A DNA stretch of 64,000 nucleotides from Eledone cirrhosa (GCA_964016885.1 OZ024740.1:388554001-388618000); one strand, 5' to 3'; counted from the first letter of the stretch, positions 1,475-27,398 are shown. Program-made: numbers and translations. Notes: generated from the letters alone by a model not told the origin.

Positions 1475-2548
1475 GTTATATTTGGGGAGGGTCATATTTG
1501 CGTAATATTGCCAGAATTAATAACAGAACACACTCACTGTTTGGTTGGTTTTCGCTTCTCGCTGTCTTTTATATATATATATCTGCGATCTAACTTACTC
1601 GGTCCTCAATGTTGCCATTGACTGACCGGCGGTCAAAAATAATACAGATACAATATAGACACAAACACATATATATAGTTTACATAATTTACATAAATCT
1701 TTCGTTGCACATCTGCAACATCGTCAGTGGTGTTATATTCATTGTTCCTCCTGTTGTGTTGTATGTCTACGCCATTTTTTTTTTTGTTCAGTCTGTCTAT
1801 ATATTTATTTATTTATTTGCTTGTTTGTTTATCTTATTTTATTTTGTCTTCTTTGCGCATGCGTTTGCGTGTGTGTATAGTGTTATGTGTGATGTGTGAC
1901 TAGTGTGTATAGTGTTGTGTCTGCTGGGTGACTAGTGTGTGTTTATGTGCTTGTGTATGTATTTATTTATCTTATTTTATAAAAAATAAAATAAGATAAA
2001 TAAATACATACACAAGCACATAAACACACACTAGTCACCCAGCAGACACAACACTATACACACTAGTCACACATCACACATAACACTATACACACACGCA
2101 AACGCATGCGCAAAGAAGACAAAATAAAATAAGATAAACAAACAAGCAAATAAATAAATAAATATATAGACAGACTGAACAAAAAAAAATGGCGTAGACA
2201 TACAACACAACAGGAGGAACAATGAATATAACACCACTGACGATGTTGCAGATGTGCAACGAAAGATTTATGTAAATTATGTAAACTATATATATGTGTT
2301 TGTGTCTATATTGTATCTGTATTATTTTTGACCGCCGGTCAGTCAATGGCAACATTGAGGACCGAGTAAGTTAGATCGCAGATATATATATATAAAAGAC
2401 AGCGAGAAGCGAAAACCAACCAAACAGTGAGTGTGTTCTGTTATTAATTCTGGCAATATTACGCAAATATGACCCTCCCCAAATATAACAATATCTGTTT
2501 CGACACTCGATTTCATATAAAAAACCTCGCAAAACTAATTCATCGCCG

Positions 2549-2549
<1 letters not shown>
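1475..2549 (+). mobile_element. ~1 kb palindromic PLE-end-like cassette plus 60 bp tail, in (TA)n
   Basis: 1475-1980 is the near-perfect reverse complement of 1981-2489. Unique tail at 2490-2549. Hammerhead-like core CTGACGA-TGTTGCAGATGTGCAAC-GAAA at 2237-2264. A single-arm relative lies at 25693-26492. Confidence 0.75.
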
Positions 2550-2613
<64 letters not shown>

Positions 2614-2616
<3 letters not shown>

Positions 2617-2765
2617 TAAAATAACAGATTAAAGTTTAAGCAAAGAATCGGTACTTTTACCCTTAACGGGATCTTAAATATTTGCTCTACAGTTCTTATA
2701 TATTTGATATATATTTATCCTTATCGAGCCCTCTTTGGATTTTAGTCTTCATAATTATTATTACT
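2614..2765 (+). mobile_element. Centrally deleted copy of the 24027-24238 palindromic mini-element
   Basis: Shares the left arm (aaataacagattaaagtttaagcaaagaatcg...aacgggatctt) and the tail (aaatatttgctctac...ttttagtcttca) with 24027-24238. Confidence 0.8.
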
Positions 2766-3179
2766 ATATATATATATATATATATATATATGGGATAACA
2801 AATTATCGTTATAGGTAATCCAGTTAGAGGTTCTGAGTACTCTGTATTGTGGATAGTTTTAACGTACGGCGTTGTTTGACTCAACAAGAGGTTTCCTTAG
2901 TTAGGTGGCGAGTTCACGGTAATTCCTATGCAGGTTAATCTTGGAGTAATAATAGTGAAAGAATGAAGAATAACATGGTCAACAGTACAAAAAGGGTTTT
3001 ATTTACAGTATTAACAATTGTTTCATTGATTAGGATGTCTAAAGGCTGCTAATCACTCGAAGTTGTGTCACTCAACCTTAAATACAGTGTATGCCTAAGC
3101 AAATCATCGGAATAACTGACAAAGTTACACTCGGTGTTTGTATTTATACTATGGAGAATTCAAATAACAACATCAATAA

Positions 3180-3310
3180 TAAAGAAAGAAAAAGAAAAAG
3201 AAAAAGAAAAAGAAAAAGAAAAAGAAAAAAAAGAAAAAGAAAAAGAAAACGAAAACGAAAAAGAAAAAGAAAAAGAAAAAGAAAAAGAAAAAGAAAAAGA
3301 AAAAGAAAAA
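3180..3310. repeat. (AAAAGA)n microsatellite
   Basis: Hexamer tandem run. Confidence 0.95.
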
Positions 3311-5194
3311 ATAATAATAAAGAAGTTAGAATGAAGATTAAAAATAAGTAAACAAAATATATACATGAAAAAAATATATGAACATAATATGATTGTTGAA
3401 AATAGTGGTAGTGGTGGTGGTTAAAGTTATAGTGGTGTGTAAGTATAAAAATGTGATGAGGGTAGGAATATTATTAATATGAAAATAAATATTAAATATA
3501 TACGTAAATATATGCATTGGTTAAATCACAGATGGTTAGAGTAGAAAGAAAGAATATAATGATAAATAACATATAAAAGATAAATTAATAAATTAGAAGT
3601 TAGGTTAGAGGTTAGGAGATACAGGATAGGATAGAAGGGAAGAGGTGAAATAGCTTTAGGGAGAGAGTGAAAGAAAGTGAAAGAAAGGTTAGGAGGTTTA
3701 TGATGTTGATTTAGTGATTAGTTGGTCTGTTGACAGGTAATAATAGTGGGTTGGTATGTAGTTATTATAATAGACTCTGCTTGAATTATGGGATTGTTGG
3801 ATCGAATCATGTTGGTTTGAAATTTGCGAATTTAGTAACTGCTTTGTGCCTACAGTAAATTGATCGTTCTATTTTGCTGTTAAGGAAAATCTGCTTCGTA
3901 TCTCAAGACGTATCTGAAGAGCTTGCGATTTTCAGAGTCAGGTTCGATCATCACCTCGATCGTGCCTCGAGCTGGTCGCCAGAGAAACGATTGTAATATG
4001 TCCAATAAATTCTATTCGTCGCAACACTGATTCTCTTTTTTTCTGTGATTCCCCTACGGTTAGCTATACTCTTTGTTGTTCTCCTGTCTCACTCGCTTTA
4101 CGCGTTTTAATTGTCCTAATAACTTATTTTAGTTATTATTGCACCGACGTGAGGTATATGATTTTTAATTCAATGAAATATCTATGATCGTCGGCAAATC
4201 ACTGATGAGGGACTCATTTTATTACATGTTATCCATGCGCTACCTGCAGTATTTTTCTCCATATTTTATTACATATATATATATATATATATATATACGG
4301 ATTCTATAAAGATTCCATCAACCATACTTCTAAAGAATGCATTGCTAGATCGTCTTTGATATTAGGGCTGCTCAATTTCTACACAACAAAAACGACTGTG
4401 CAATTTGTATTTTATTATGAAACTGACCCGCTGCTTACTGCATAAGTGACATCATCTTCGAACGCTTGCCATCTACTAGACATAAATGTCAAATTTCCTC
4501 CGAAGTTTAAACCGATGTGTACTATTCTTGGAAAGAAGACAAGATAGTCAATTCTTGAAAACCGCTGATATTTACTCTGCTCTTTCACTGCACTGCCGAC
4601 TAAATGGATTAAGGAATATGGCATACAGGAATAAACAGACATGTGATAAAGAAAGTAAGAAACAATGTGTATCTCACAGAATTGTGTACGATAAACTAAT
4701 CAATTCAAATGTGTATGTTTCCGTTTCTAATAAGCGAATGTATGATATTTCTGTCGGACTAATTGTTCAGATCACAGCTACGTCTTCAAGTAAGTTTGTA
4801 TCGTATGTCTACACGATTACAAATTAAAGTGTGCTACACAGAAATATAACATGTATAATACCTCAGAGTGTCTGAATATAATTCTTCATGGAGAATAAGG
4901 AAGTTGGAGTTAATATAGTTATTGCAGAGCTCATTAACAATCTTACTAGAAATAATTTTGCCGTAAGTAAAGGAAAGCCAGTCAATTATTAATATTTTAA
5001 TTATTTTGTCAAGAAATAGCACAACCCAGAATATATTAAAGTTGTTAACTTACCGATTGTGTTAAATACATATGACATCAGTGAACTATTTATCCTCACA
5101 AAAGTATTTGTTTACTTATTTATCGATGCTTCCATCACTACTTTTGTAAATATGGTGACGTCAATATTTCCAAAAAAATCGTTGTACTACTCGT

Positions 5195-5395
5195 CAGATC
5201 TGTTCTGCTAGAGAAGGGGTCACAGGTGACGGATAGCGATACGGCCACCAGGTAGCTGCTGAATGAATAACCAACCCCGGTCCAACAGCGGTAAACTACT
5301 AAGGGAGATAGAGCAATGGGTGACTCCTGTAGCTCAGAAGAAGACTCTCACAACCCAGTGATGTAGCTACGACGAGGCGAGTAAAGGCCGCCTGT
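5195..5395 (-). repeat. Unclassified interspersed repeat (3 copies in window)
   Basis: Reverse complement aligns with 49580-49808 and 57306-57484 (tagctacatcactgg...ttgctccatctccc.tagtag...cgacccgttctctagc). Confidence 0.75.
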
Positions 5396-6835
5396 AAATA
5401 AGCGTAGTCTTCGAAGGTTTGATAAAGTACCAGATTGATGACTAGCGCGAATAAGATCACCGAAACTGAAACTGCAATATGATGAGGAAAACAAAAAGAA
5501 ACTATACCGCACTGTCCTTTATTGTGGTTCGTCTCCACTATTTGTTCACATAATTGTAAATAAATCATTAAAAATACTGCATTTGCTCGCCCCATACTTA
5601 TTTCTATTTTGCATTTTAATACTTCTTGCATTAAGAATGTTAACACTAACTGAAATATCTATTCTTAGTCATTTGACATAAAATTAATCTTTTCAAATAG
5701 TGAATGTGTTGTTGCTAGCTTGAACTGTGACGAAACATGATGGTTGAAAATAATGATATAAAGTGAAAATGTGTGTTGTATAAATTCTTAATGCTAAGGT
5801 AAAGCAGTCTAAAATATTATTCTATTTTCTTTGGCAACGTAATGTTTGTACGTGCGTATTTCTTAACGTTTTCCGCCACTTCGTTGCTAGTCTAAAATAT
5901 AGAAACTAAGATTCACAGGTAACAGAAGACCTTAATTGATTTTATGCTGATAAAGTCTGTAGCGAAGAAAATAGTAATGCAGATTCCTCTTGCTCTCTTT
6001 GTATAGACGAAACGCAGAGAATAATCTTAGCATCCAGAAGTTAGTATCTTTAAAGAAATCACGAAATACTTATAGATAAGTTCACAAGCGTATATTTATT
6101 ATTTTATTATAGAAGTATATAGTGTACCACGGACATTATATATCAAATGCACATTATCATAAACGTGTTGGTAATTGACAGTGAGGTTATCGAGGATAAA
6201 TAGGTTTTCACATTTAATATTAATGCAGTGTAAACGGATTAAATGAAACAAAAACGAACATCTGGAATAGTGATTGTAGAGACACTGTAAAATGTTCAAA
6301 AGTCGCTCTCACTCATAAGATTTCTTGATAAACATATTTTTGTTTTTGTCAACGTTACGTGATTGATAGACGCATATCTCTTTTTTCAATGGACTGTGGT
6401 TTATTGAAGTGCTTTTTCAGTAAAAATGATGGCCAGGTAAACTGACGTAATGTAAAATTATGTCTATACATAAATAAAAAAATAAAATTCTGAAAGATGT
6501 GAATTTACAGATCGCGAACTTTATTCAATTTGGTAAAACGTTCCTTCATATTCTGTAGCAATGTAGTGATATTGTACATCTCACCTACAAAGTAAAAATC
6601 ATCAGATTATATATTTTGTTCCAATTGGAGTTTTCAAGAAAGTTTACTCGCAATAACTTATGACATTACCGGTTTCACAAGCTATATAATTTTCATAAGT
6701 TAAGAGAGATTGAGAGATGTGTCTATTTCGCATTTTGAAATATACATAATTTTGAAAATCATGAGACCATTGAAATTAAAGGTTATTGTAAATAAGACTT
6801 CCTGAAAACTCCATTGCATTTTCAAGTTCTTTTTC

Positions 6836-6917
<82 letters not shown>

Positions 6918-7962: not shown

Positions 7963-8016
<54 letters not shown>

Positions 8017-8044
8017 GATCTATTTATCTATCGATCTATCTATC

Positions 8045-8118
<74 letters not shown>

Positions 8119-8158
8119 TAGGAATAACCAAAGAATTCTTAGAAATACATTGTTTTAT

Positions 8159-8206
8159 TAGCTAACAGTGTTTCATCCATACACCATGGCAGGAATCATC
8201 AGAGCC
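8159..8206 (-). ncRNA. Minimal type I hammerhead ribozyme
   Basis: Reverse complement of the 10757-10804 motif. Confidence 0.75.
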
Positions 8207-10756
8207 TATAAACAAGAGTATATCAATAGTTGCATGCTCCATCGAGCTGCGTCACCAGAACAAGGTTAAAGGACCAGCAGGGGGTCCCGAGGCCAGCTAT
8301 ATGGAAAAAGACAGAATACATGATGCACATAATGTCATAAAATGTCTTAAAAAATTACATCAAAAATTAAAAATTTTAATTTAAAAATTAAAAATTAAAA
8401 ATTACACCAAAAATGTATCACTTAAATGGTGCAATAGATGATAAAGAGGTTGGGAGAGGGTAGCAAGAATGAGTGAAGGTATTACACAGCATGATCAGAT
8501 ACAATAAAAAAAATAAGAAGGTACAAAAATACATAGATAACAAAAGAGATAAATATACAAATACAAAACAATAAAGGAACAAAAAGCCCGAAAAACGAAA
8601 AAAATTTAAAACAAAGCAAAGCATAGATACATCAAAGCACAAGCAGTGCAAAAACAGGGTGTACAGAAAGATTAAGAGAGTTTGCAAGCATGAGTCTGTG
8701 AGAACAGTAGTTGGTTGGCAGTGGTGCAGCCTTACATGTATGATAGTCCATATGAGGGATGGTGTACTCCAATTATATCGCCTTGTAACACTATTTTTTC
8801 CAAAACCTATACCCAGGGGATTTATCACCATAGGCGGTCTGGGATATACACCTAAAATCTAAAATAAGAATTAAAAGAAAGTACGATGAGTTAAAGAAAT
8901 GTATGGTACATGTACAGCCGGCACACAAGTGAGGAAATTGAAAATACGCCAGGTCCGCAATAACTGGCATTCCTCAAAGTCATTACGTTCGGTCGCTCAA
9001 CCCAACGTCCCAGGTGAAATTCACTGTATGTCCGAGTTGGCGTCCAACCAATGTGTCGTACCGTATACAACTATACCACAGTAAATGTAAATCGTGATGG
9101 CTATCCCGTCACATAGACAGAAAGTGTATACAGGAAACTCCGCTTCCAGAATCACATATGGCAGAGTGAGCAGATATTGTTATAATAATAGGCAGGTCTA
9201 TTAGAGTGAATGCAAATTTTTGTAGAATATGTATATATATATAGAGAGAGAAGAGAAAACTCACGGCCAAACCTGTCAATGACAGTTATGTTATTTATAT
9301 GTCCGCCACGTGGTTTTCGTTTAGATTATTGACTCTGGAGGTTGCAATCCATTCACAGTCGAGTGTGGCCTCTCCTGGGTCGACCGGAGTTCAATATCGA
9401 GTGTCGCACTTTGCATTGAGTGTCGTTCTATAATTCATCAAAGCAGGATCACAATTCATATTCAACTAATTCCAACTTTCAAAGGTTAGCCTCTCGCTAG
9501 TAACACATAACGGTAGTCCGAATATAAACACAGGAAGTCGTAGTGTGACTATGAAAAGTATGGGAGGCAATTCGCGTCATAAAGGGCGGATTCATTAGAT
9601 ATCCAATGGGATGCTTGGGGTGAGTCTTTTTTTTTATTCGAACCCCTCAGCGATCAACTACCCCTTCCCCCAGGGGCTTGATCGATTCAGGGGCACCTAG
9701 CCCACACGATTTGCTACCATAATTCACTATACTATGTTAGCTCTATCACACACTTTAGGGTTAAGGTTAACTGAACCCCGGGAGCCCAATTCACTCACTT
9801 TATAGCTGCAGCAGGGTTTCCTGGGCTTTCGACAGACTATTATGTTGTGCTATCAGTTAGCGCACAATGGGTGTGTTTATAAACCATATTAATATGGTTA
9901 GTGTGGGTAGGTGCCTATATAGGGTCAAACTGTGCTAGGTATAGTGAAAATCCTTAAGTAAGTTCTACCCTATGGGTTCTTGGCCTGTGGTCCAGTAAGA
10001 TGAACTTTCTTTTATTTCTTATTTTAGATTTTAGGTGTATATCCCAGACCGCCTATGGTGATAAATCCCCTGGATATAGGTTTTGGAAAAATAGTGTTAT
10101 CTCACTTAACGTTCGGAACTGGAACATATCGATGTGGTTCGTAGGGTGATATTATGATAAGGAGCTTCGACCTGTAACAAGGCGATATAATGGGAGTACA
10201 CCATCCCTCATATGGACTATCATACATGTAAGGCTGCACCACTGCTAATCAACTACTCTTCTCACAGACTCATGCTTGCAAACTCTCTTAATCTGCCTGT
10301 ACACCCTGTTTTTGCCCTGCTTGTGCTTTGATGTATCTATGCTTTGTTTTATATTTTTTGGTTTTTCGGGCTTTTTGTTCCTTTATTGTTTTGTGTTTTT
10401 ATATTTATCTCTTTTGTTATCTATGTATTTTTGTACCTTCTTATTATTGTTTTTATTGTTTCTGATCATGCTGTGTAATACCCTCACTCATTCTTGCTAC
10501 CCTCTTCCAACCTCTTTATCATCTATTGCACCATTTAAGTGATACATTTTTGGTGTAATTTTTAATTTTTAATTTTTGATTTTTAATTTTTAATTTTTGA
10601 TGTAATTTTTAAAGACATTTTATGACATTATGTGCATCATGTATTCTGTCTTTTTCCATATAGCGCTGGCCTCGGGACCCCCCTGCTGGTCCTTTAACCT
10701 TGTTCTGGTAACGCAGCTCGATGGAGCATGCAACTATTGATATACTCTTGTTTATA

Positions 10757-10804
10757 GGCTCTGATGATTCCTGCCATGGTGTATGGATGAAACACTGTTA
10801 GCTA
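10757..10804 (+). ncRNA. Minimal type I hammerhead ribozyme
   Basis: GCT-CTGATGA-TTCC..12nt..TGGAT-GAAAC-ACT-GTT-AGC. Stem I GCT/AGC extends into ttgtttat/ataaaacaa. Confidence 0.78.
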
Positions 10805-10957
10805 ATAAAACAATGTATTTCTAAGCATTCTTTGGTTATTCCTATAACTATAACGGCTCTGTAGTATACTAGTTGTCCTACATTGAGCTAAAACCTCACT
10901 GTCATACCAAGGGCAATATATCTGCGTGTCTGGGCATATTGATATATTTGTCAACCA

Positions 10958-10997
<40 letters not shown>

Positions 10998-10999
<2 letters not shown>

Positions 11000-12160: not shown

Positions 12161-12185
12161 TTAATGGTGTGTAAGTTGTTGAATA

Positions 12186-12861: not shown

Positions 12862-13131
12862 TATAATGAATGTGTCTAAAAGCGACTATATGTATGTATA
12901 TATGTGAAAATGTATATAAATAAGTAAATAAGTGGGTGAGTGTATATATCTATATGTGTTTGATGTGTATAATTAAATGTATGTGTATTCATGTATATGT
13001 GTATTTATATATATATATATATATATACACATGGACAAGAGTATGTATGTATATATGTGTGAGTCTATATGTGTGTGTATGAAGATAAGTAGAGTATGAA
13101 AGTGTATATACATGAATGCGTATGTATGTAC

Positions 13132-13176
<45 letters not shown>

Positions 13177-13785
13177 GGTATATATGTATGTAAGTATGAG
13201 CATGTAAGTATGTGTATGTGAGTGTATGTATTTGTAGAGGTGTACATATATGTATGTGTGTGAATGTGTATGTTTTTAAAAAAAATAAGTATATATACGC
13301 ATATATTTATGTGTGGGCGAACGGATACGTACATTGAAAGAAAAAATTAAGTCTGTATGTGAATTAAGTGCAAACACAAAACTAACCATACATATCTATA
13401 CTATCTCTAATCCTTCTATAGATTTAGAAAAACAACCAATACAACCAACGCCAAATAATGAATATTCTATAAAAATGTCAAACTCAACTAACAAAATAAC
13501 AGATGGGAATCTAATTACCCACTGCTATCAAACAATTTCTATCCACTCCCTTAACTATTCTTCTAACAACTTCACTCCTCCCTCTTAATATTCTCTATAA
13601 AAACCAAACAAGTTCTGAATGATATTATTCTGATGAAATTGGTAGTTGAAAATAACATTGAAATATTGAGTGTCTGCATAATTAATACTTTCTAGATAGC
13701 AGCTGTTTTCAGGTTAAATAACTGTTATTGAAACACGTGTCAATAAATTCCTTTTACTGAACTGTATCCATTTAAATCCTTCTAT
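12862..13785 (+). repeat. 5' pseudo-LTR
   Basis: Highly similar direct repeat of 16418-17355. Confidence 0.92.
13625..13746 (+). ncRNA. Hammerhead ribozyme with ~95 nt stem II insertion
   Basis: TTATT-CTGATGA-AAT(T)GGTAGTT...AACTGTTATT-GAAAC-ACGT-GTC-AATAA. Confidence 0.78.
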
Positions 13786-13947
13786 TTTCTCCGGATTACT
13801 TTTGAAACTACAACTGGAACCGTCGAGCAACCCTACGTGAGCTGTCCATCTACTGTGTATAATATTCATATTACAACACTACGGATAATACTATATATTT
13901 ACCTCCTGTAAAGTTGAGCAACCCACTCAGCAAACGTAACCACAACA

Positions 13948-16330
13948 ATGGAAAAGCATTACCTGGATATGTCACTTAAAAACATACCAACCCAAGGTAA
14001 AAAGGAATACTTATTGAGTATGATACAAAAAACAAACGAATTCATTCGACGTGTCAGGTGGAAAACGCTCCACTATGATAGAAGCCGTATGAACTCACAA
14101 TCAGAAAGTGGTGTAAACAACAAATTTGGTTTTAGAACGTGTAAAAACCCACCCACTAACCCACTATTAGATGCATTTGAGCAGGACCTTATGGACTTAA
14201 TCCTTAAAATTAAATTCAAAGGACGTAACACCAACAACAAACTGCAGAAAGATATTAAAAAACTACTGGACGACCTTAAAAACACCAAATTAATTGTAGT
14301 AAAAGCGGACAAAACATCTAACCTGTACACTATGGACTGCACTACATATAACAACTTCATTCGAAAAGAATTACATTAAAAATATAGAAAAACAAGTGAA
14401 GTTACCCTTAAGCACATCAATGATGAGGCATGCGAAATAGTGAAAAATCTCAGAATCGAAGATAGGACTGGACCAATCTTACCGGCGGTACCCACCTTCA
14501 ATCTCAAGGACCATAAGGTAAACTTTGATAATGACCCTAAAATTAGACTAATCTGCCCCTCTAAATCAGATATAGGTAAAATAAGCAAATATATCTTAGA
14601 TAGAATCATCCCCCAATTTAAGGCTAAGGTTAACATTAAACTCTGGGGGAAGACCCAAGAAGCAATAAGATGGTTTAATAGTATTAGCAATAAGAATAAA
14701 TATAAGTTTATCCAGTTTAATATCGATGAATATTACTCATCGATATCACCTGAAACTCTGAATAGAGCCCTTGAGTTTGCTAAGGATAACTCTGACCTTA
14801 CAAACGAAGAAATTAAGATTATATTAGAAGCTAGGAAAACTATAGTCAAATTTGAGAACAGTTATCGGGTTCGTAAAGATAGACCCTCCAACTTTGATAT
14901 AACAATGGGCTCTAACGATTCGGCGGAAATAACTGATATTGTGGGGTTATTTATCGCCTTTAGACTCCAGGAAAAATTCAGTAATCTCCACAGTGGAATA
15001 TACCGCGATGATGCTCTCCTCCTAGTTAAAAACCTAAATAACCAAAAACTAGAAAAACTACGCAAAGATATAAGAAAACTACTACTTGAAATAGGACTAA
15101 CTATAACATATGAACACAACCTTAAAGTAGTTAACTTCCTGGATGTCACACTCAATTTAAACTCTGGTCTGATTAAACCGTTTCATAAATTAAATGAAAA
15201 TCTCAAGTACGTGAATGTTGGGTCTAACCACCCCATCTCTATAATTAAATCTATCCCTAAAAATATTTCCCTTAGAATCTCGGGTCTATCTTCTAACATA
15301 CAAGTATTTAAGGAACACGCCGAGTACTACGATAACGCCCTTAGTAAAGCAGGCTACCTCAACAAAATAGAATATATAGATGAAAACAATCAAAATAAAT
15401 CCCACATAGGTAAAAATAATAACACAACACCAAACCACACTTACTACCATAGTGTACACACCAATAAACCAACAAACAAAACTCATAGAAAGTGATGCAA
15501 AGAGTACTTATGGTATAACCCTGAAAACAATAGTTCCATTAGTACAAATTTGCCAGTACTCTTCTTTAAAATAGTTAAGAAAGATTTTCCTACATCACAC
15601 AAATACCACAAAATCCTAAACCCTACCACTATAAGACTATCATACTCTACAGCGTTAAACCTTGAACAACACATAAAAAAGATTAATACTAGAAGGTTAA
15701 ACGAAAACACTAAAAACTTAAGTACAAAGAGCACAAAAAAAAACAGTAGACAATACACTACAGAACATAAATAAACCACACCTAAGTTCGTCCGCAATAC
15801 TACTCCAGAGTGAACCTAACTACAAAACCAACGTACACAACTGTAACTGCACCTATCCTGACAATTGCCCTCTCGGCAATAACTGCCTTGAAAAAAATAT
15901 CATCTATAAGTGTACCATCGAATCCGGAGGCAACGAGTGGTATTACGTGGGATCAACGGCAACATCGTTTAAATCTCGATTATATAGGCATTCTTACTCA
16001 ATAAAACACCAGAGCTAAAGAAATGTAACAACTTTAGCAGAGAAAGCTTGGACGCTCAGGGATAGCGATCAAAAGTTTACTCTAAAATGGGAGAAATTAA
16101 CTAAAACGCAAAGCTTTTCCAGGAGCCAAAATTTCTGCAAATTATGTAATCTTGAGATTGATTACATAATCACACACAAGAAGAAACTGCTTAATAACAG
16201 AATTGAACGAACATTATTCTGCCGTCACCGAACTAAAACCCTTTTTCCCCCACTACAAGCTGAATATTACATAAACGAGGGACATCCTCCCAACTATACA
16301 AATCCTCAATCTAATTATAAAGCAATCTCT
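13948..16330 (+). pseudogene. Naiad-type PLE reverse transcriptase + GIY-YIG endonuclease, disrupted
   Basis: Motifs SLKNIP, VKADKTSNLY, RLICPSKSDIG, ITMGSNDSAE, YRDD, VNFLDVTL, SNHP, LWYNP, CNCTYPDNCPLGNNC, IIYKC...YYVGST, CKLCNLE...LLN...CRHR. Stops at 14377, 15493 and 15772, plus frameshifts. Confidence 0.92.
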
Positions 16331-16417
16331 TCTCAACATATATATGTACTATTAATAACCTTAAATTACCACACTAATAATGGATAAATATGCTGGTGAG
16401 AATAGGTGTGAATATGC

Positions 16418-16557
16418 TATAATGAATGTGTCTAAAAGCGACCATATGTATGTATATATGTGAAAATGTATATAAATAAGTAAATAAGTGGGTGAGTGTA
16501 TATATATATATATGTTTGATGTGTATAATTAAATGTACGTGTATTCATGTATATGTG

Positions 16558-16604
<47 letters not shown>

Positions 16605-16706
16605 GGACAAGAGTATGTATGTATATATGTGTGAGTCTATGTGTGTGTATGAAGATAAGTAGAGTATGAAAGTGTATATACATGAATGCGTATGTATGTA
16701 CATATA

Positions 16707-16746
<40 letters not shown>

Positions 16747-17355
16747 GGTATATATGTATGTAAGTATGAGCATGTAAGTATGTGTATGTGAGTGTATGTA
16801 TTTGTAGAGGTGTACATATATGTATGTGTGTGAATGTGTATGTTTTTAAAAAAAATAAGTATATATACACATATATTTATGTGTGGGCGAAGGGATACGT
16901 ACACTTGAAAGAAAAATTTAAGTCTGTATGTGAATTAAGTGCAAACACAAAACCAACCATGCATATCTTTACTATCTCTAATCCTTCTATAGATTTAGAA
17001 AAATAACCAATACAACCAACGCCAAATAATGAATATTCTATAAAAATGTCAAACTCAACTAACAAAATAACAGATGGGAATCTAATTACCCACTGCTATC
17101 AAAAAATTTCTATCCACTCCCTTAACTATTCTTCTAACAACTTCACTCCTCCCTCTTAATATTATCTATAAAAACCAAACAAGTTCTGAATGATATTATT
17201 CTGATGAAATGGTAGTTGAAAATAACATTGAAATATTGAGTGTCTGCATAATTAATACTTTGTAGATAGCAGCTGTTTTCAGGTTATATAACTGTTATTG
17301 AAACACGTGTCAATAAATTCCTTTTACTGAACTGTATCCATTTAAATCCTTCTAT
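16418..17355 (+). repeat. 3' pseudo-LTR
   Basis: Direct repeat of 12862-13785. Confidence 0.92.
17196..17316 (+). ncRNA. Hammerhead ribozyme with ~95 nt stem II insertion
   Basis: TTATT-CTGATGA-AATGGTAGTT/AACTGTTATT (10 bp including G-U pairs)-GAAAC-ACGT-GTC-AATAA. Confidence 0.8.
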
Positions 17356-17825: not shown

Positions 17826-18307
17826 CTAGCAGTGGTACCCGGCGTTGCACGGATAAGGTATTGTGAAATATATAACCGCCTTAGCTAAGCTTAGTTTTAC
17901 CACAACCACGGCTGGCAAAGAATGAGTGTCTTGAGCAAGGGTGGCAGCAGACAGCCAGACATACAGACAGATATTATAAGGGCGCGTTTTAGACGCAGAG
18001 CGAATTGTAGGAAGTGACGTAATGCAGACAGCCAGACATACAGACAGATATTATAAGGGCGCGACTTTATATGTATGTATCTCTCTAAAAAGAGAAAGAC
18101 TACGAATTATAGAGAGAGATCGCTAAATCGCCTAATGCGGTCCCTAGGGCATTTAAAATTTGAAATTTCCTTTGCTCAGAACACTCCGTGAAACATATTT
18201 ATTACATGTGTAAAGTTTGAAAACAGTCGGTTGGGTGGTTCTCTAGATTTAGGGATTAAAACTCACACACACACAGGCAGACATCCTCAGTTTTATATAT
18301 ATAGAGA
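17826..18307 (-). mobile_element. Non-autonomous Helitron
   Basis: Minus strand reads A|TCTCTATATATATAAAACTGAGG...CCGTGCAACGCCGGGTACCACTG-CTAG|T: 5' TC, 3' hairpin + CTAG, AT target. Homologous to 52293-52884. Confidence 0.85.
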
Positions 18308-18314
18308 TAAGAAA

Positions 18315-18595
18315 TTAAGTCCATAGAATCATTTGCTAAAATATATACAGTATTTCTTCTCCCAATCAGCATAATCAACCACATAAAAAATCAATTAAAC
18401 GAGGCTATAAGTTTAAAATGTACTTATGAAGAAACAATAAATAAATAAATGACAGCTATTTTATCCGCGATCCACAGCCACATAAGATTTACCTAGTATT
18501 TCTAATAGCCCATTCAAATTGACTAGATATATAGTTAACCATACACAATTAGGTACAAAATTTTAGTTAGAAGAAAATATGTACATAAACATACC
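18315..18595 (+). repeat. Diverged single-arm copy of the 24621-25215 palindrome family
   Basis: Shares ctcccaatcagcataat.aaccaca.aaaaaatcaatta...aagaaaca.taaataaata...aaccatac.caattagg. Confidence 0.75.
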
Positions 18596-18613
18596 AAAAT
18601 GTACATAAACATA

Positions 18614-18680
<67 letters not shown>

Positions 18681-18682
<2 letters not shown>

Positions 18683-19039
18683 ATGATATTAAATAAATGG
18701 CAACTATATTTATAAAACCATATTTACTATTATATATATTTCAAGGGTACCACAATTTTGGTAGGCTATCATCAGATAAAATACGTAGTGTGTTTTATAA
18801 ATTATGACATAACCAAGTTATGTCAAAATTTATAACACTTCTTATTTTATCTGATGATAGCGTACCAAAATGTTGGTACCCGTGAAATATATATAATAGA
18901 ATAACTATGGTTTTATAAATATAGTTTCCATTTATTTAATATCATTGTATATTATACTCCAGAACAACTGTAGAGTGCTCTGAATCAGTTATAAACATTT
19001 ATATTTGTTGAATTACCAACAAATTGAATATCCCTTCTG

Positions 19040-19041
<2 letters not shown>
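18681..19041 (+). mobile_element. Palindromic hammerhead mini-element (~270 bp hairpin + ~95 bp tail) in (TA)n
   Basis: 18681-18812 is inverted at 18815-18947. Hammerheads at 18721-18783 (-) and 18843-18903 (+). Confidence 0.85.
18843..18903 (+). ncRNA. Type I hammerhead ribozyme
   Basis: TATTTTAT-CTGATGA-tagc-GTACCA-aaatgt-TGGTAC-ccgt-GAAA-TATAT-ATA-ATAGAATA. Confidence 0.8.
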
Positions 19042-19091
<50 letters not shown>

Positions 19092-19853
19092 ACACAAGGA
19101 ATGTATATCAGTGATTAAGAGAAATCATTTACGTTTTGTATGGCTATATTGTTGGCTTGAGTAAACATAATTTCTATTTTCAGGACGTGCGTATCTATAT
19201 GTATGTATGTATACATATATATTTGTATGTCTTTGCATAAAATACTAATCTCTATAGCAAGGGTACATTTTGAACTCAGATTTTTGGTATATTGATCTCA
19301 AGTTTCTAAACTAAACATATGGTCATTATTGAACAATGTTTAATTTCTCATATTATATATCTATGTCCCATTCATGAATATCGATACTTATATTTATATT
19401 TTTATTATTCATTTCATATAAATTGCTAACTCAACTTAATATGACATGACGTAAAGTTGTCACTGTCCCCCCCTCTCTATATATAGTATTTCTCTCTCTT
19501 GAGTTTTTCTTTCTGTATGATGACTTGATATCTCTCTGTTGCTTTCCTTTGTTTTTCTTATTCCTTCCTTTTCTTTCTTTTTTATTTCCTCCTATCTTTA
19601 TCTATCTCTTTCTTTTCTCCATACATTTCTCTCTCTCTCCGATATTTCTCCAGGTTTTCTTTCTCTTTTCTTTCTCTCTCTCCGTCGTTGTTCTTTTCTC
19701 TCTCCGTCTTTTTTCTTTCTCTCCGTCTTTTTCTAATTGTGCTTAACACTATGACTTATTATATTAACAAATCACTCTCCAGACAGCCTCCAAAAGTAAT
19801 GGTTGTATTTTAAAAGGGTACGTCAAACCTATTTGTAAAACTGTTATATATTG

Positions 19854-19918
19854 TATTTTGTCTGATGAAGGCATACCATAATTTAATGTGGTATCCCTGA
19901 AATATGTATAATGAAATA
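19854..19918 (+). ncRNA. Type I hammerhead ribozyme (same family as 18843), in a solo PLE 3' end that stops at ~19958
   Basis: TATTTTGT-CTGATGA-AGGc-ATACCATA..TGTGGTAT-cCCT-GAAA-TATGT-ATA-ATGAAATA. The downstream tatggttttataaatatagtttccattt is shared with 18905-18935. Confidence 0.82.
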
Positions 19919-20109
19919 AATATGGTTTTATAAATATAGTTTCCATTTATTAATATCGTATATATATATATAGTATATTAGGGAGAGGATCAGGGGTGTA
20001 TAACACTCCACTTATCCAACAGGCAGTATAAGGTTAGCTCGATGTCTGAGGACAGAGCCGTGATATAATCAACAACAAAGAACGCCTATAGCATATGCAT
20101 ATCTTTACT

Positions 20110-20155
20110 TGCTAACATTGTTTCATCCGCACTATAAGTGGGACTCATCAGAGCA
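20110..20155 (-). ncRNA. Minimal type I hammerhead ribozyme
   Basis: Reverse complement of 23916-23961. Confidence 0.8.
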
Positions 20156-22139
20156 TAAAGTTTGATTACATATCACACAAGCAATAACAAATCCAAGACA
20201 TTGAAGAAATAAGAATAAAAAATAATAAAAGATAAAAAATATTGAGGAAGTAAAAATAAAAATAAACATTGAAAAATAAACATTGAAAGATAAACATTGA
20301 AAAATAATTGAAAAATAAGGGGTGCTATCAGTCACAGTTGGGCGGGGTGCTGTCAACATATAGTTACATACAAGCATACACATGGATAAGAGAACAGACA
20401 AGAATAGATAAGATAGATAGCAGTAGGTAAGAATAGATAAAAAATAGGTGAAAAATAGGTGAAAAATAGACACATAATATATATAAGAAAATATAAAAAA
20501 CATACATATAAAATATACAGATAATAGTGATACAGGGTAAGGAATGAAATAAAATTAAATTAAATTAAATTAAAATTAAAATTATATAAAATAAAATATA
20601 ATATAATATAATAATAAAATAAGATAAAATAAAATAAAATAAAATAAAATAAAATAAACTAAAATAAAATAATATAATATAAAATATAATTAAATAAAAT
20701 TAAATAAATAAAATTAAATAAAATGAAATGAAATAAAATAAAATAAAATAAAGTAAATTGAGATAAGATATATATTTTTTTAGAATATATTTCTCGAATA
20801 TATCAGGGGCCCACGAAGGCCCTAAGTGTCACAGTTATCAGTATCACTTGACCATTGCAATGCAATGGAGACGTCCCAGGTTGGGCAGTCTCAAAAGTTC
20901 ACTCGAAAGTCACGGGTGTGCATTCACACAGTTGAGCGGTGGGGTAATCACAAACCGGTTCACACCCGGGCAGGAGTCCAATGGTCAACAGAGGTACATC
21001 GAAGGAAGGTAGGAGAATTCACGTGCAGCAGCAAGAGGCAGACAAGTGGGCCGAAAGCAAGCAGGTGCAGGCGGGCTAGCCGAAAGCAAGCAAATACAGT
21101 TGGGTCAGGCGGGTTAATATGCATACCCAACAGCGCATACAAAAGATATATAAAAAATAGCTTCAAGAGCCAATATCATGAAGTCACCGCATTGGGACAT
21201 CTCAAGATTATACACACCAATATGTTCTGCACGTATATGCACATATACACACCACATGCATATGCAGAGACGGTATACATATATATATATTTTTATATAC
21301 AGACATATACAACCACCTACACCCATACACATATAAATGTATACACAGACACACACGCACACACACACAGCGTAGGACACCCGGGTCAAAGCTGATATTA
21401 AACACAGAAATACCACATCAGGCAAGACCCACCACCACGGGTAATACATTCAAAATAAATACATACGAGGAGATGCAGTAAAATACATCAAATTGAATTC
21501 CTACGAAGATAATCGTGTCTGCACGTGCCATTGCCCGATTCCAGTGTACACAGACCGTTAGTAACTACGGAGGGCTATCGGGGCCAAAACGTTACTTTTG
21601 GGATAATAACAACGACCGTCAATATATGGAAGGCCGATCGTGCTAGAAAGACTACAACACCGGGCAGGAGCTCCCAGAAGTCAGCCTGTAGATCTTAAAC
21701 CACAGAATAGGAGGGCAACACGTACATGTGCCACGTATCTACTGCTTACGGCGAGATGGCACGGGTCCGCCCACAGTTACAGGCTAGATTTCTATTTGTG
21801 CAGCCTATATCACAGTACACGCTCTACATAGATACATTACATCATAACTCATGCGCATACAGAGGTACAGATCCGCAAGATACACGTCGGGATAGACCCA
21901 CCAATGCACCAATGGTGGGTAGGCGAGCGTGGATGGGTTACATCCGCTGTGCCAAACAGGGGTGCTTATTAACATACACACCCACTCACCTGTACACCCC
22001 AATATCCAGATCAATATTCTCCCGCAGGCATACGTATACACTCACTGACTCATATACATAGAAGACAAACAATAGGAAACAGTTACACACAATAAGAGAC
22101 AGTTACACAAGATAGCCCAACTGGAGAATTAAGGAAGTG

Positions 22140-22588
22140 CTAGCTAATAGGTTTAAAGTAGAAGAAAGAGCTTAATATTCGGTGGGGGCAAGAGGAAAAT
22201 ATTTCTGACTTTCTGTTTAGTAGAGGGCATTTAGCAAATATAATAGAGTGGGATTCGGCAAGGCATAGGTTACATACTCTATTATGAGGAGTATATGGAT
22301 GGGATTTAGCAACCTGCCGCCAAGTAAGTGTGTAATGTGTTCGTGCATTTTTTAAATTGTGGACGTACGCTGCCAAGGAGGTGGAGTTCCTCAGTTTATT
22401 GAGTCTAAAAGTGCACTGGTGAGAGTTAAACCTGGTCTTAAAGGGGGTGGAGGTTGATCCTATATAGGTTTTAGTGGACGCCGTGGTTACCACATCACAC
22501 GCGTAAACTATGTTTCTAATAAGGCAGAAACCATTCAGGGGGCAGCCTGAAGCCCTTCTACAGTTACAATTCTGGTGATGCTATTCTG
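22140..22588 (-). pseudogene. GIY-YIG endonuclease domain of a Naiad-type PLE (5'-truncated, frame still open)
   Basis: CNCRRASGCPLNGFCLIRNIVYACDV...TYIGST...FKTRFNSH...TSLAAYV...CNLCLAE...LLNRKSEIFSSCPH. Confidence 0.9.
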
Positions 22589-23915
22589 GAATGTATTACC
22601 CGTGGTGGTGGGTCTTGCCTGATGGGGTATTTCTGTGTTTAATATCAGCTTTGACCCGGGTGTCCTACGCTGTGTGTGTGTGCGTGTGTGTCTGTGTATA
22701 CATTTATATGTGTATGGGTGTAGGTGGTTGTATATGTCTGTATATAAAAATATATATATATGTATACCGTCTCTGCATATGCATGTGGTGTGTATATGTG
22801 CATATACGTGCAGAACATATTGGTGTGTATAATCTTGAGATGTCCCAATGCGGTGACTTCATGATATTGGCTCTTGAAGCTATTTTTTATATATCTTTTG
22901 TATGCGCTGTTGGGTATGCATATTAACCCGCCTGACCCAACTGTATTTGCTTGCTTTCGGCTAGCCCGCCTGCACCTGCTTGCTTTCGGCCCACTTGTCT
23001 GCCTCTTGCTGCTGCACGTGAATTCTCCTACCTTCCTTCGATGTACCTCTGTTGACCATTGGACTCCTGCCCGGGTGTGAACCGGTTTGTGATTACCCCA
23101 CCGCTCAACTGTGTGAATGCACACCCGTGACTTTCGAGTGAACTTTTGAGACTGCCCAACCTGGGACGTCTCCATTGCATTGCAATGGTCAAGTGATACT
23201 GATAACTGTGACACTTAGGGCCTTCGTGGGCCCCTGATATATTCAAGAAATATATTCTAAAAAAATATATATTCAAGAAATATATTCTAAAAAAATATAT
23301 ATCTTATCTCAATTTACTTTATTTTATTTTATTTTATTTCATTTCATTTTATTTAATTGTATTTATTTAATTTTATTTAATTATATCTTATATTATATTA
23401 TTTTATTTTAGTTTATTTTATTTTATTTTATTTTATTTTATTTTATCTTATTTTATTATTATATTATATTATATTTTATTTTATATAATTTTAATTTTAA
23501 TTTTATTTTATTTTATTTTATTTCATTCCTTACCCTGTATTACTATTATCTGTATATTTTATATGTATGTTTTTTATATTTTCTTATATATATTATGTGT
23601 CTATTTTTCACCTATTTTTCACCTATTTTTTATCTATTCTTACCTACTGCTATCTATCTTATCTATTCTTGTCTGTTCTCTTATCCATGTGTATGCTTGT
23701 ATGTAACTATATGTTGACAGCACCCCGCCCAACTGTGACTGATAGCACCCCTTATTTTTCAATTATTTTTCAATGTTTATCTTTCAATGTTTATTTTTCA
23801 ATGTTTATTTTTATTTTTACTTCCTCAATATTTTTTATCTTTTATTATTTTTTATTCTTTATTTCTTCAATGTCTTGGATTTGTTATTGCTTGTGTGATA
23901 TGTAATCAACCTTTA

Positions 23916-23961
23916 TGCTCTGATGAGTCCCACTTATAGTGCGGATGAAACAATGTTAGCA
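23916..23961 (+). ncRNA. Minimal type I hammerhead ribozyme
   Basis: TGCT-CTGATGA-GTCC-CACT-tat-AGTG-c-GGAT-GAAAC-AAT-GTT-AGCA. Confidence 0.82.
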
Positions 23962-24026
23962 AGTAAAGATATGCATATGCTATAGGCGTTCTTTGTTGTT
24001 GATTATATATATATATATATTAATTC

Positions 24027-24236
24027 AAATAACAGATTAAAGTTTAAGCAAAGAATCGCTGCTTTCACCATTAACGGGATCTTCTGAAGATCCCGTTAAG
24101 GGTGAAAGCAGCGATTCTTTGCTTAAACTTTAAACTGTTATTTAAATAAATATTTGCTCTACGGTTCTTATATATTTGATATATATTTATCCTTATCGAG
24201 CCCTCTTTGGATTTTAGTCTTCAAATTTATTATTAT

Positions 24237-24238
<2 letters not shown>
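24027..24238 (+). mobile_element. Palindromic mini-element (~117 bp hairpin + tail) centred on a hammerhead-like CTGAAGA box
   Basis: Arms 24027-24084 and 24086-24143. CTGAAGA-TCCC-gttaa-GGGT-GAAAG. Relatives at 2614, 53040 and 53355. Confidence 0.75.
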
Positions 24239-24321
<83 letters not shown>

Positions 24322-24329
24322 CACATACA

Positions 24330-24465
24330 GAATAGTTACGTCCCTTTACGATCTGAGTTCAAATCCCGCCGAGGTTGACTTTGCCTTTCATCCTTACGGG
24401 GTCGATAAAATAAAGTACCAGTAATGCACTGGGTAATTGCTGGCCTTGTGCCTAAAGTAGAAACA

Positions 24466-24468
<3 letters not shown>
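24330..24468 (+). mobile_element. tRNA-derived SINE, 5'-truncated
   Basis: B-box GAGTTCAAATCCC plus the family core and tail. Confidence 0.85.
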
Positions 24469-24521
<53 letters not shown>

Positions 24522-24620
24522 TACACATACACCAATTAAACAAAGTCACAGGTATATATGTGTTTTGGCAACTTTTCACGATGTGGCTCAATGGAGAATT
24601 AATAAATTAATCAGAGCAAA

Positions 24621-25215
24621 ATATTATAGAGTAAAGCATGTCCTGAGAATTATTTGATAATATATATACATCATCTTTACTCCCAATCAGCATAATTAAC
24701 CACACAAAAAATCAATTAGACAAGGCTATAAGAATAAATGGCATCTAAGAAGAAACAGTAAATAAATACGCTATTGTGGCGTCTTCGCGAGCAACCGCTA
24801 TAGAATATTTACCCAACATTTCAACAGCAGGTGGAAATTAATTAAATATACAGTCAACCATACATAATTAGGTGAAAATTAATGTTAGAAATGCTTATAT
24901 ACATACCAGGATTTAGTGATTTAATCCTGGTATGTATATAAGCATTTCTAACATTAATTTTTACCTAATTATGTATGGTTGACCGTATATTTAATTAATT
25001 TCCACCTGCTGTTGAAATGTTGGGTAAATATTCTATAGCGGGTGCTCGGAAAGACGCCACAATAGCGTATTTATTTACTGTTTCTTCATAGATGCCTTTT
25101 ATTCTTATAGCCTGGTCTAATTGATTTTTTGTGTGGTTAATTATGCTGATTGGGAGTAGAGATGATGTATATATATTATCAAATAATTCTCTGGACATGC
25201 TTTACTCTATAATAT
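24621..25215. repeat. ~595 bp palindromic element
   Basis: 24621-24911 is inverted at 24924-25215. No intact hammerhead seen. Confidence 0.85.
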
Positions 25216-25402
25216 ATATATATATTTCGCCTGTCTCAAAGTCTAGTAGTAGGAAGAGTGAATCATTGTCCTGATGCATTGTCCTCTTCTATTCATAGCT
25301 GAGGCCTTCAAAATGTTTATTTATTAAATATACCGTATATCTTTAGATATACGAAATTCCTATACTTATTTCCATACAGCGATGTCGAAGTTAATTCTAG
25401 TA

Positions 25403-25495
<93 letters not shown>

Positions 25496-25652
25496 AGTAA
25501 GTAAGTTAATTTTTATAATTTTCTTATTTTACGTCTTTCATATAATTGTTCTGCATCCCCTTGCATTGAACCACAAAGTTACTAAGACAAAACCTATATA
25601 TTTGCTAGCATAGGTATGCATCTGTATATATATGTTGGTAGATATACTAATT

Positions 25653-25692
<40 letters not shown>

Positions 25693-25693
<1 letters not shown>

Positions 25694-26492
25694 ACACGTG
25701 AGAATAATAAAAGTCACAGGAAATTCGGAAACGGCGGACACATAGGCAATACACGCCCGTCGGCTGTCTTCAGTCATTCATTATAGATTCGTGTTGTTGT
25801 CTGGCATGTTCGTACAGTACTATACGAACATGCCAGACAACAACACGACGGTAACATAGACAACATAGAAATTAGAATAATATCTAAACATAGAAATGAC
25901 CCACCAGATAGGCAAATCAGAGAGGCCAGCGAAATAAAACTTAGAAGGCCAAGGCTAAACAGAAAAACTGAATGGAATAACAACAACACCCAAACAAACA
26001 ACACTGACCTAAGAGAAGTATAAATAAATAAATAAATAAATACATACGCAAGCACAATAGCAACAAACACATATAAACACACACTAGTAAACTAAGAGAG
26101 AATACAATAACCCAAACACGAACACACATCAAACAAAACACTATACACACACGCAAACGCATGCGCAGAGAAGACACACAAAAAATAAATAAATAAACAG
26201 ACTAAATAAAGATGGCGTAGGCATACAATACAACGGGAGGAAACATAATAGCACCACTGACGATGTTGCAGATGTGCAACGAAAGAACTTTGTTAGACAA
26301 TATATATATGTTTGTGTCTATATTGTATCTGTATTTTTGACCGTTGGTCAGTCAATGGTAACATTGAGGACCAAATAAATTAAATTAACCGATATAAAAG
26401 ACACAGAAGCGAAAACCAACCAAACAGTGAGTGTGTTCTGTTATTAATTCTGGCAATATTATTACACACATATGACTCTCCCAAGTATAACA
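25693..26492 (+). mobile_element. Single-arm longer copy of the 1475-2549 family, in (TA)n
   Basis: Shares caccactgacgatgttgcagatgtgcaacgaaag (26252-26285) and the terminus gttctgttattaattctggcaatatt...tataac. Confidence 0.8.
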
Positions 26493-26516
<24 letters not shown>

Positions 26517-26523
<7 letters not shown>

Positions 26524-26987
26524 TGAAATGACAGGAGGCTGGATTTGTGTAAATCCTTGAAAGGTTTATTATACTATGATCATTTCAATGACCGGGTTCC
26601 GTATGAATCCGGTGATATCATCAGGTATTCGAAATATAATACGTGAATGTAATAGATAAAATCCATCGGGCTGAAAATCGAGGACCTCGATTTTCAGCCC
26701 CATGGATTTTATCTATTACATTCACGTATTATATTTCGAATACCTGATGATATCACCGGATTCATACGGAGCCCGGTCATTGAAATGATCATAGTATAAT
26801 AAACCTTTCAAGGATTTACACAAATCCAGCCTCCTGTCATTTCATTTAATATTTAACTCCGTAATAGCACCACCAACTACAAAAACAAAGACGGTTGAAC
26901 TGCCTTACGTTGAGTACTCTCTATATTATTGCATTACGATTGACCATACGGAATAGACCAGCTCTATACAGTGGTGAACCTCAAACC

Positions 26988-26990
<3 letters not shown>
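26517..26990 (+). mobile_element. Palindromic hammerhead mini-element (~335 bp hairpin + 140 bp tail) in (TA)n
   Basis: Near-perfect palindrome centred at ~26684. Hammerheads at 26571-26628 (-) and 26740-26797 (+). Relative at 63860-64000. Confidence 0.9.
26740..26797 (+). ncRNA. Type I hammerhead ribozyme
   Basis: ATAC-CTGATGA-tatc-ACCGG..CCGGT-catt-GAAA-TGATC-ATA-GTAT, with self-complementary TATGATCATA-like stem III region (ATGATCAT). Confidence 0.8.
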
Positions 26991-27040
<50 letters not shown>

Positions 27041-27044
<4 letters not shown>

Positions 27045-27398
27045 TAACAAAATAGATATTCTTGTGATCAAGTTTCAGAGGTACTGAGTTAACTTCAGCA
27101 GTACGTCCTCATCAGATAAAATAAGATGATGCATGACATACCCTGACATAGTAGATGGTTAAAATTCAGTCATGGTATGTCATGCATCATTTTATTTTAT
27201 CTGATGAGGACGTACTGTTGAAGTTAACTCAGTACCGCTGAAATATGTATAATAAAATATACTTGATCACAAGAATATCTATCTTGTTAATATTTTGAAT
27301 TAATATTAATAACTCTGGAAAACCACAACTGTTGAGTGCTTCCAATCTATTGTAAAACTCATTCTTTGATTTATTCATTGAACCTTGTTTAACCTTTA
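27041..27398 (+). mobile_element. Palindromic hammerhead mini-element (~250 bp hairpin + tail) in (TA)n
   Basis: Arms 27041-27140 and 27172-27292. The left arm lacks the stem III/cleavage segment. Confidence 0.85.
27193..27259 (+). ncRNA. Type I hammerhead ribozyme
   Basis: TATTTTAT-CTGATGA-ggac-GTACTG..CAGTAC-cgct-GAAA-TATGT-ATA-ATAAAATA. Confidence 0.82.

Follow-up and report, generated by a model that had tools for sequence, protein, structure and literature searches.

The stretch analysed here, hereafter the window, consists of 64,000 nt from Eledone cirrhosa (GCA_964016885.1 OZ024740.1:388554001-388618000), with a GC content of 34% and abundant (TA)n. A preliminary description, made from the sequence alone, had claimed that eight cassettes share one plan, in which (TA)n is followed by an inverted arm, a sense arm, a tail and again (TA)n, and this plan was confirmed at 8/8 sites. 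We propose, with a probability of roughly 0.8, that the cassettes are 5'-truncated insertions of Penelope-like elements (PLEs) in (TA)n, each built from two cDNAs, one primed at either end of the tail, that were united in a head-to-head orientation. That the cassettes are truncated PLE products is close to certain, and the joining of two cDNAs is probable. The arms of the cassettes are 77-99% identical and a single tail of ~55-140 bp is present per cassette; the tail of cassette H ends beyond the window (L039). The cassettes, labelled A to H, are as follows with their hammerhead cores; clade names are those suggested by motifs.

1475-2549 (+): family A cassette, 3' end of a Neptune-like PLE; arms 1470-1980 and 1986-2494, tail to 2549.
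1727 (-) and 2237 (+): family A cores, matching CUGANGA.
8115-10960 (+): family B cassette, putative Hydra clade, 2.8 kb; arms 8111-8790 and 10173-10852, tail to 10960.
8202 (-) and 10761 (+): family B cores, minimal type I hammerheads; predicted site GUU.
10856-10888 (+): example of a bulged hairpin (RCTC-stem...stem-NN-GAGY), just past the arm/tail boundary.
18679-19041 (+): family C cassette; palindrome at ~18671-18956, then the tail.
18775 (-) and 18851 (+): family C cores; predicted site AUA.
19973-24008 (-): family D cassette, putative Hydra clade, 4.0 kb; tail on the left at 19973-20062, sense part 20063-22588, inverted arm 22589-24008.
20063-21451 and 22589-24008: matched arms of family D, element on the minus strand.
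22143-22580 (-): GIY-YIG fragment of 146 aa within the sense part of D.
20151 (-) and 23920 (+): family D cores; predicted site GUU.
24021-24239 (+): family E cassette, putative Hydra clade; arms 24017-24153 with the hairpin centre at 24085, then the tail.
26518-26990 (+): family F cassette; arms 26518-26683 and 26685-26850, tail to 26990.
26624 (-) and 26744 (+): family F cores with a palindromic helix III; predicted site AUA.
27041-27399 (+): family G cassette, putative Hydra clade; arms 27041-27293 within a palindrome that extends to ~27300, then the tail.
27115 (-) and 27201 (+): family G cores; predicted site AUA.
63859-64000 (+): cassette H, a diverged member of the F family; arms 63859-63946 (43-nt arms), no hammerhead.

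Other parts of the preliminary description need adjustment. The cassettes had been presented as minute and free of protein, but B extends over 2.8 kb and D over 4.0 kb with its GIY-YIG fragment. They had also been assigned to about six unrelated families; several of these are related, as H is 87% identical to F (26517), B resembles D (71% over 112 nt) and G is similar to a C-type copy (76% over 71 nt).

The genome of the species itself (3.0 Gb) was searched with eight tail or arm queries, each of which returned 90-1468 candidates; 40 were scored and 30 fetched, and longer stretches were added. The loci discussed below are the best 30 BLAST matches per query with 1.5-kb flanks. The earlier suggestion of a PLE origin found support in these loci. 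The 3' end of B is contiguous with a reverse transcriptase (RT) and an endonuclease (EN) in L281, D forms a 4662-bp tandem unit with RT and EN in L292, and G is present in L289 as a copy in which an open reading frame (ORF) lies between two pseudo-long terminal repeats (pLTRs). For E, an EN is found upstream and an ORF start downstream of the tail (L290, L291), and for A, an RT plus a C-terminal GIY-YIG is contiguous with the 3' end (L293/L294). Judged by this contiguity, five of the seven families join parents with RT and/or GIY-YIG, four of the Hydra clade and one Neptune-like. The tail is the start of the 5' untranslated region (UTR) of the next unit and is followed by at least four TA in 209/230 loci. 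As in PLEs that carry an EN, the pLTRs are in tandem or inverted and the tail is one-sided. The match to the Pfam GIY-YIG model was weak (E-value 0.01-0.02, below the curated cut-off).

Motifs suggest that B, D, E and G belong to the Hydra clade. RWK or RWR and DKT/NKT were found in D, G, E and a further PLE of the window (12866-17353), the N-terminus of B being outside the part read. By translation, D, B and the 12866-17353 element have a CxCX5C linker, with CxxC and CxH near the end and no CCHH; the endonuclease of E was matched by tblastn and then read in a long copy. According to Craig et al. 2021 (PMC8557442), Hydra-clade PLEs have these marks together with a C-terminal GIY-YIG, a hammerhead in the pLTR and a (TA)n target, and the supplement lists Hydra-1_Obim. 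The units described there are <3 kb with tails of 30-40 bp, whereas those found here are longer (4.7 kb in D, with ~2 kb of 3' non-coding sequence) and have tails of ~85-140 bp. Inverted 5'-truncated copies with a one-sided tail are described in that paper for PLEs generally. The parent of family A carries YVDD, a CX4CxxC linker and DKG in its DKS form, and its C-terminal GIY-YIG contains two cysteines, as in Neptune-type PLEs (PMC8557442); translation of L293/L294 gave the C-terminal EN, CX2-5CxxC linker and CCHH expected of a Neptune endonuclease; the GxKF/Y motif was not seen in the part of the A parent read. Its motifs make family A Neptune-like.

Families C and F are tied to PLEs solely by the hammerhead, the tail hairpin and the similarity between C and G. 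Two candidate parents were rejected: (TA)n and other repeats intervene between the F copies of L034 and L036 and the Neptune-like RT close to them, and the Hydra ORF found downstream of C in L067 is part of an E copy. The F body (L295, L297, L034, L035, L037) contains tandem duplications of ~510 bp and 230 bp, and may be a long 3' UTR or a non-autonomous PLE.

Evidence for the mode of formation came from the junctions between arms. When 233 loci were counted (window copies included, 7 repeats of F loci removed), 99 had an adjacent inverted arm beginning at the arm/tail boundary and excluding the tail, and these presented 96 distinct junctions; the remaining loci were plain truncations, internal inversions or long copies. 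The centre of the window F copy (26517) occurs a single time in the genome. One-off truncated insertion, one of the two possibilities raised in the preliminary description, is thus the rule. A different inversion point in every copy, named there as the sign of insertions that are not amplified, was found for most copies, yet E reuses one exact centre at 534 genomic loci. In the 50 of these that were read, all on contig C1, the middle base relative to the tail was A in 24, T in 23 and unassigned in 3. Both middle bases are found within each of two E tail variants, and shared arm changes mix A and T copies. The E parent reads TTC-A-GAA at this position; annealing of two identical cDNA ends there would create a central mismatch that resolves either way, whereas a single amplified master or a single fold-back would have a fixed centre base. 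The 50:50 centre base discriminates in this manner between two annealed cDNAs and fold-back and, together with the lack of shared arm asymmetries, it suggests that the centre is a hot spot at which palindromes formed repeatedly, and not the mark of a clone. The arms of one copy generally agree at polymorphic sites (A 16/16, B 9/9, D 6/6, G 14/14, C 7/10), so both arms came from the same source at insertion or were later homogenised. A difference between left and right E arms (T 10/11 left, A 30/30 right) looked like the product of two templates and was rejected as an artefact of query selection, which was exposed by unselected flanks and a second query.

In C, G, E and F, the cDNA ends accumulate inside a boundary specific to each family, whether they belong to either arm or to a plain truncation. 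Within 25 nt, ends inside versus outside the boundary were 20:1 for C (-183), 16:1 for G (-157), 17:1 for E (-69) and 20:0 for F (-222), and just 5/48 C ends lie beyond it. At the boundary, C, G and F have the sequence TCACT, and E has TTAGT. The former has been termed initiator-like in a rotifer pLTR (PMC3846280) and Penelope carries an internal pLTR promoter (PMC2377424). From the pattern of ends, we lean slightly towards the boundary being the 5' end of the RNA, in which case end boundaries would predict transcription starts to a single base. Pile-ups of junctions at the hammerhead cleavage site were looked for and none was found, the boundaries lying upstream of the core.

A second recurrent feature is the bulged hairpin, which is present 7-8 bases past the arm end in B, C, D, E and F with inner stems that differ. 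It was found in 30/30 copies of C and of F, 29/30 of D, 26/30 of B and 25/30 of E, against a shuffle rate of <=0.4%. In D and G it recurs immediately past the end of the tail; at the arm/tail boundary of G, the hairpin has a longer bulge, and it is absent from A. Three families outside the motif definition also carry it, namely the 12866-17353 element, a ninth cassette of the window (24517-25215) and a palindrome family encountered in the flanks. We consider this hairpin a candidate RT signal in Hydra-type families.

A few copies carry a further mark. In one of the 50 same-centre E loci (L345, identical to L349), 16/16 changes in the arms read as A>G on a single strand followed without a break from one arm into the other, and 0/22 As of the tail are changed. 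A genome search with a pattern fixing one AA>GG pair, which presets 2 A>G changes per match, gave 4 genomic matches, all with further A>G changes: L349, L351 and two sense-only copies without an inverted arm. L351 is a palindrome marked in both arms; its left arm is truncated internally, and the copy ends at the second start site without a tail. ADAR avoids a 5' G neighbour, and such a neighbour preceded 1/42 changed As versus 21/87 unchanged ones (p=0.002; 8 of the 42 were fixed by the pattern). These clusters suggest the mark expected of reverse-transcribed, ADAR-edited hairpin RNA. As an edited sense-only template would mark the arms on opposite strands, the template was likely the whole hairpin, and occasional re-mobilisation of edited hairpins is quite probable from the base changes. 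Independent mobilisation of whole palindromes, which the preliminary description had envisaged, survives as an occasional event only, represented by two marked copies; such palindromes would be a genomic record of edited hairpin RNA that was retrotransposed. For these copies, it is possible but somewhat unlikely that the changes stem from an assembly error, or from edited RNA that was written back where it came from, with no fresh insertion. No donor locus was found, and three contig runs from one sample gave no cover over the marked left arm of L345 and low depth on its marked right arm; however, a single type of change is seen, on a single strand, it is limited to the paired arms and is scarcer after G, and L351 is truncated in the manner of a new insertion.

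These observations can be assembled in a mechanism. An element protein would nick both (TA)n strands, and RT would have two internal starts on the RNA, one at the end of the tail and one at the end of the arm; in Hydra-type families the bulged hairpin, perhaps serving as an RT signal, comes after each. On an RNA starting at the pLTR promoter, these sites would be only ~70-360 nt from the 5' end, so that short cDNAs would run off the end and pile up at one boundary. The 3' ends of the cDNAs would then anneal via short self-complementarity and be filled in, in E through TTC/GAA round a one-base mismatch that could resolve either way. The hammerheads would be passengers masked in the hairpin, and the finished palindrome would occasionally be transcribed, edited by ADAR and reverse-transcribed again in trans. 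In twin priming of L1, an inverted segment arises from a second primer and is joined through microhomology, and internal inversions of such a look are also present among the genomic copies here; the cassettes differ in that the second start would be at a fixed site, so that the two arms are copies of one and the same stretch and together make a palindrome. The RT of a Poseidon PLE from Anolis (PAc) starts internally in vitro at two sites bounding the tail, and both strands of AT-rich DNA are nicked (Frangieh et al. 2024, PMC11167929), as proposed here; in vitro, insertion by PAc does not require the hammerhead. The PAc starts lie within the ORF, in an AC-rich stem-loop, whereas here the tail is in the 5' UTR and a bulged hairpin follows each start (PMC11167929). 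A broader scheme is tentative and, in our estimation, rather doubtful: RT would start at two hairpin-marked sites near the mRNA 5' end, most insertions would be obligate mini-palindromes bounded by the transcription start and keeping the cis signals, and a second tier of protein-free hairpin retroposons would be copied anew in trans, by which ADAR edits would be inscribed in the germline genome and thousands of double-stranded RNA hairpins seeded there.

Several points weigh against the joining of two cDNAs primed at hairpin-marked sites. Firstly, the boundaries and the hairpin motif were chosen after inspection of the data, which makes the p-values optimistic; A, B and D have no clear end boundary, the F pile-ups also flank a hairpin and the C boundary is a small inverted repeat, so that structure could explain the pile-ups in C and F. 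The hairpins at G site 2 and E site 1 are looser forms that fail the strict motif script. Secondly, the selection of loci by best match had caused the false left/right signal. Thirdly, no ORF was found in the longest C copies read (~0.7 kb) or in the family F body, of which at least 2.4 kb is non-coding, and C and F may be non-autonomous families. Finally, concerning the marked copies, part of the A>G changes in the genome search was preset and two of its matches were sense-only, and the top-hit palindromes (97 copies, a few counted twice) had no A>G excess (39 T>C and 36 A>G in left arms; 26 A>G and 24 T>C in right arms).

A related explanation is that the short cassettes are mainly the progeny of non-autonomous mini-elements, either units reaching the boundary or finished palindromes, copied in trans by PLE proteins in the manner of short interspersed elements (SINEs). 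Such an origin would agree with the lack of an ORF in C and F, with the few C ends beyond the boundary and with the E centre common to 534 loci; the A>G-marked palindromes suggest such a route, and in a rotifer PLE the pLTR sequences suffice for trans mobilisation (PMC3846280). We nevertheless judge it unlikely, given the 24:23 ratio of centre bases, both of which are present in each tail subfamily, the mixing of A and T centres among arm changes, the number of distinct junctions and the presence of heavy marking in just 1/50 same-centre copies. An equally low likelihood applies to a single cDNA folding back, or an antisense template priming itself, to be extended to a hairpin, opened and inserted with no second priming. 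Self-priming has been proposed for rotifer PLEs (PMC3846280), the arms of one copy share subfamily variants and junctions often overlap by a few bases; however, fold-back of a single strand would leave one fixed centre base in relation to the tail and not the 24:23 observed, the second RT start is exactly where the inverted arm stops and is also the site at which tail-less sense copies end, and the arms are very unequal in many copies.

Under the joining of two cDNAs, the hammerheads would be passengers. The claim that most arms carry an outward-pointing hammerhead holds for A, B, C, D, F and G, each with two outward CUGANGA cores (6/8 cassettes), but H has none and the lone E core (CUGAAGA at 24084) arises at the palindrome junction, the E parent and long copies reading CAGAAGA. 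Read by eye, B and D have a 4-bp stem I and a GUU site, and C, F and G have a stem I of 4-6 bp, an AUA site and a palindromic or near-palindromic helix III; stem I does not close round the core in the window A copy. The anatomy of B, C, D, F and G appears fitting for the minimal hammerhead ribozymes (min-HHRs) of Cervera and De la Pena 2014 (PMC4209133), in which Schistosoma pairs likewise lie on opposite strands, 100-700 bp apart, and most such motifs are linked to truncated PLEs. An Rfam scan gave no hammerhead family at E<=1, its 99 sub-threshold matches being mostly microRNA (miRNA) and small nucleolar RNA hairpins, and isolated hammerhead folds had z values of -0.3 to -2.0. When the whole cassettes of A, C, F and G were folded, the hammerhead region was predicted to be 89-100% paired with its complement, and freeing the core would cost 27-30 kcal/mol. 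Owing to the head-to-head layout, transcription of either strand reaches the ribozyme's complement before the ribozyme itself, and the cassette hammerheads are predicted to be locked within the hairpin.

The proposal that the cassettes are mobilised like retrozymes, as active RNAs that self-cleave and circularise, was not supported by this analysis and is very improbable. In its favour, GUU or AUA sites accompany the min-HHR anatomy of B, C, D, F and G, PLEs are reported to be the source of animal retrozymes (bioRxiv 10.64898/2026.07.22.740005), and non-LTR retrozymes are also protein-free and PLE-related with type I hammerheads (PMC7229834; bioRxiv 10.64898/2026.07.22.740005). Retrozymes are, however, head-to-tail tandems with canonical ribozymes and circles (PMC7229834), whereas the cassettes are head to head with cores that are minimal, masked or absent; no short head-to-tail tandem units each with a hammerhead were found, the ribozyme region is predicted to be paired at the energetic cost given above, the most repeated palindrome (E) is without a canonical core, and min-HHRs of PLEs cleave poorly and need dimers (PMC4209133). 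The cassettes also resemble miniature inverted-repeat transposable elements (MITEs) in being short and AT-rich, with inverted arms and TA flanks, but there is practically no chance that they are MITEs or foldback DNA transposons moving by cut-and-paste, as the tail is asymmetric, arm length varies instead of being fixed with terminal inverted repeats, most copies are non-palindromic, and contiguity with RT/GIY-YIG ORFs contradicts it. As they resemble MITEs and miRNA precursors (the best Rfam matches were sub-threshold miRNA families), they should be masked as PLE fragments.

The gross structure of the cassettes is published, that is, the inverted 5'-truncated copy, the tail, the (TA)n target and the opposite-strand pairs of min-HHRs, and those described here are new families. 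In the titles and abstracts searched (subscription papers and Repbase being outside the scope), we found nothing on ADAR-marked PLE copies, PLE twin-cDNA junctions or a Hydra tail hairpin, nor on the centre-base ratio, the end boundaries or the A>G-marked palindromes; the bulged hairpin, end boundaries and A>G-marked copies were also not met in the accessible parts of PMC8557442. The origin of inverted pLTRs in PLEs is described as still unresolved in PMC8557442, PMC11167929 and PMC3846280, and the genome holds enough young copies to test their formation.

The window contains additional copies related to these elements:

2614-2764 (+): family E remnant, an inverted arm fused directly to the tail, with the sense arm missing.
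12866-17353 (+): near full-length, interrupted PLE, putatively of the Hydra clade; direct pLTRs at ~12866-13783 and 16421-17353.
24517-25215 (-): ninth cassette; tail 24517-24620, arms 24621-24913 and 24923-25215 (293 bp).
25692-26492 (+): A-related tail-less sense copy, the C-terminal endonuclease end, with a 60-bp internal palindrome.

The sense arm is almost wholly missing also in L100 and L241, either by hairpin deletion after insertion or owing to a very short first cDNA. The PLE at 12866-17353 represents a family distinct from the cassette families; its frames are interrupted, with RT/EN pieces at 13918-16384 bearing the motifs RWK, DKT, CxCX5C, CxxC and CxH, and its direct pLTRs hold (TA)n runs internally. 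The ninth cassette is without a CUGANGA core and has the tail hairpin; a relative lies at 18294-18572, and differently centred copies are present in L312, L125 and L204. Insertions are stacked at 19800-27399, where D follows a tail-less C-type copy and E directly follows D, each occupying the (TA)n that remained next to its neighbour, and similar stacks are present in many genomic loci. Another very common short palindrome family in (TA)n was seen in the flanks of L030, L045, L228 and L261, with a 20-mer found 24 times in the fetched loci; it is the palindrome family noted above for the bulged hairpin in its tail.

Other repeats are also present. A LINE-like element at 40818-45965 (-), identified by translation only, has endonuclease- and RT-like frames and (TA)n/(AG)n on its left flank. 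The segment 29256-32130 contains transposase-like frames (29793-30260 and 30456-30872) between 145-bp inverted repeats (86%), and we take it to be probably a DNA transposon by its resemblance to such elements. A degenerate (TA)n array of ~960 bp at 50836-51794 is without an insert. Finally, a SINE-like dispersed repeat of ~150 bp occurs at 24328-24473, 31285-31430, 33499-33651 and 40241-40393, and is frequent beside cassettes elsewhere.

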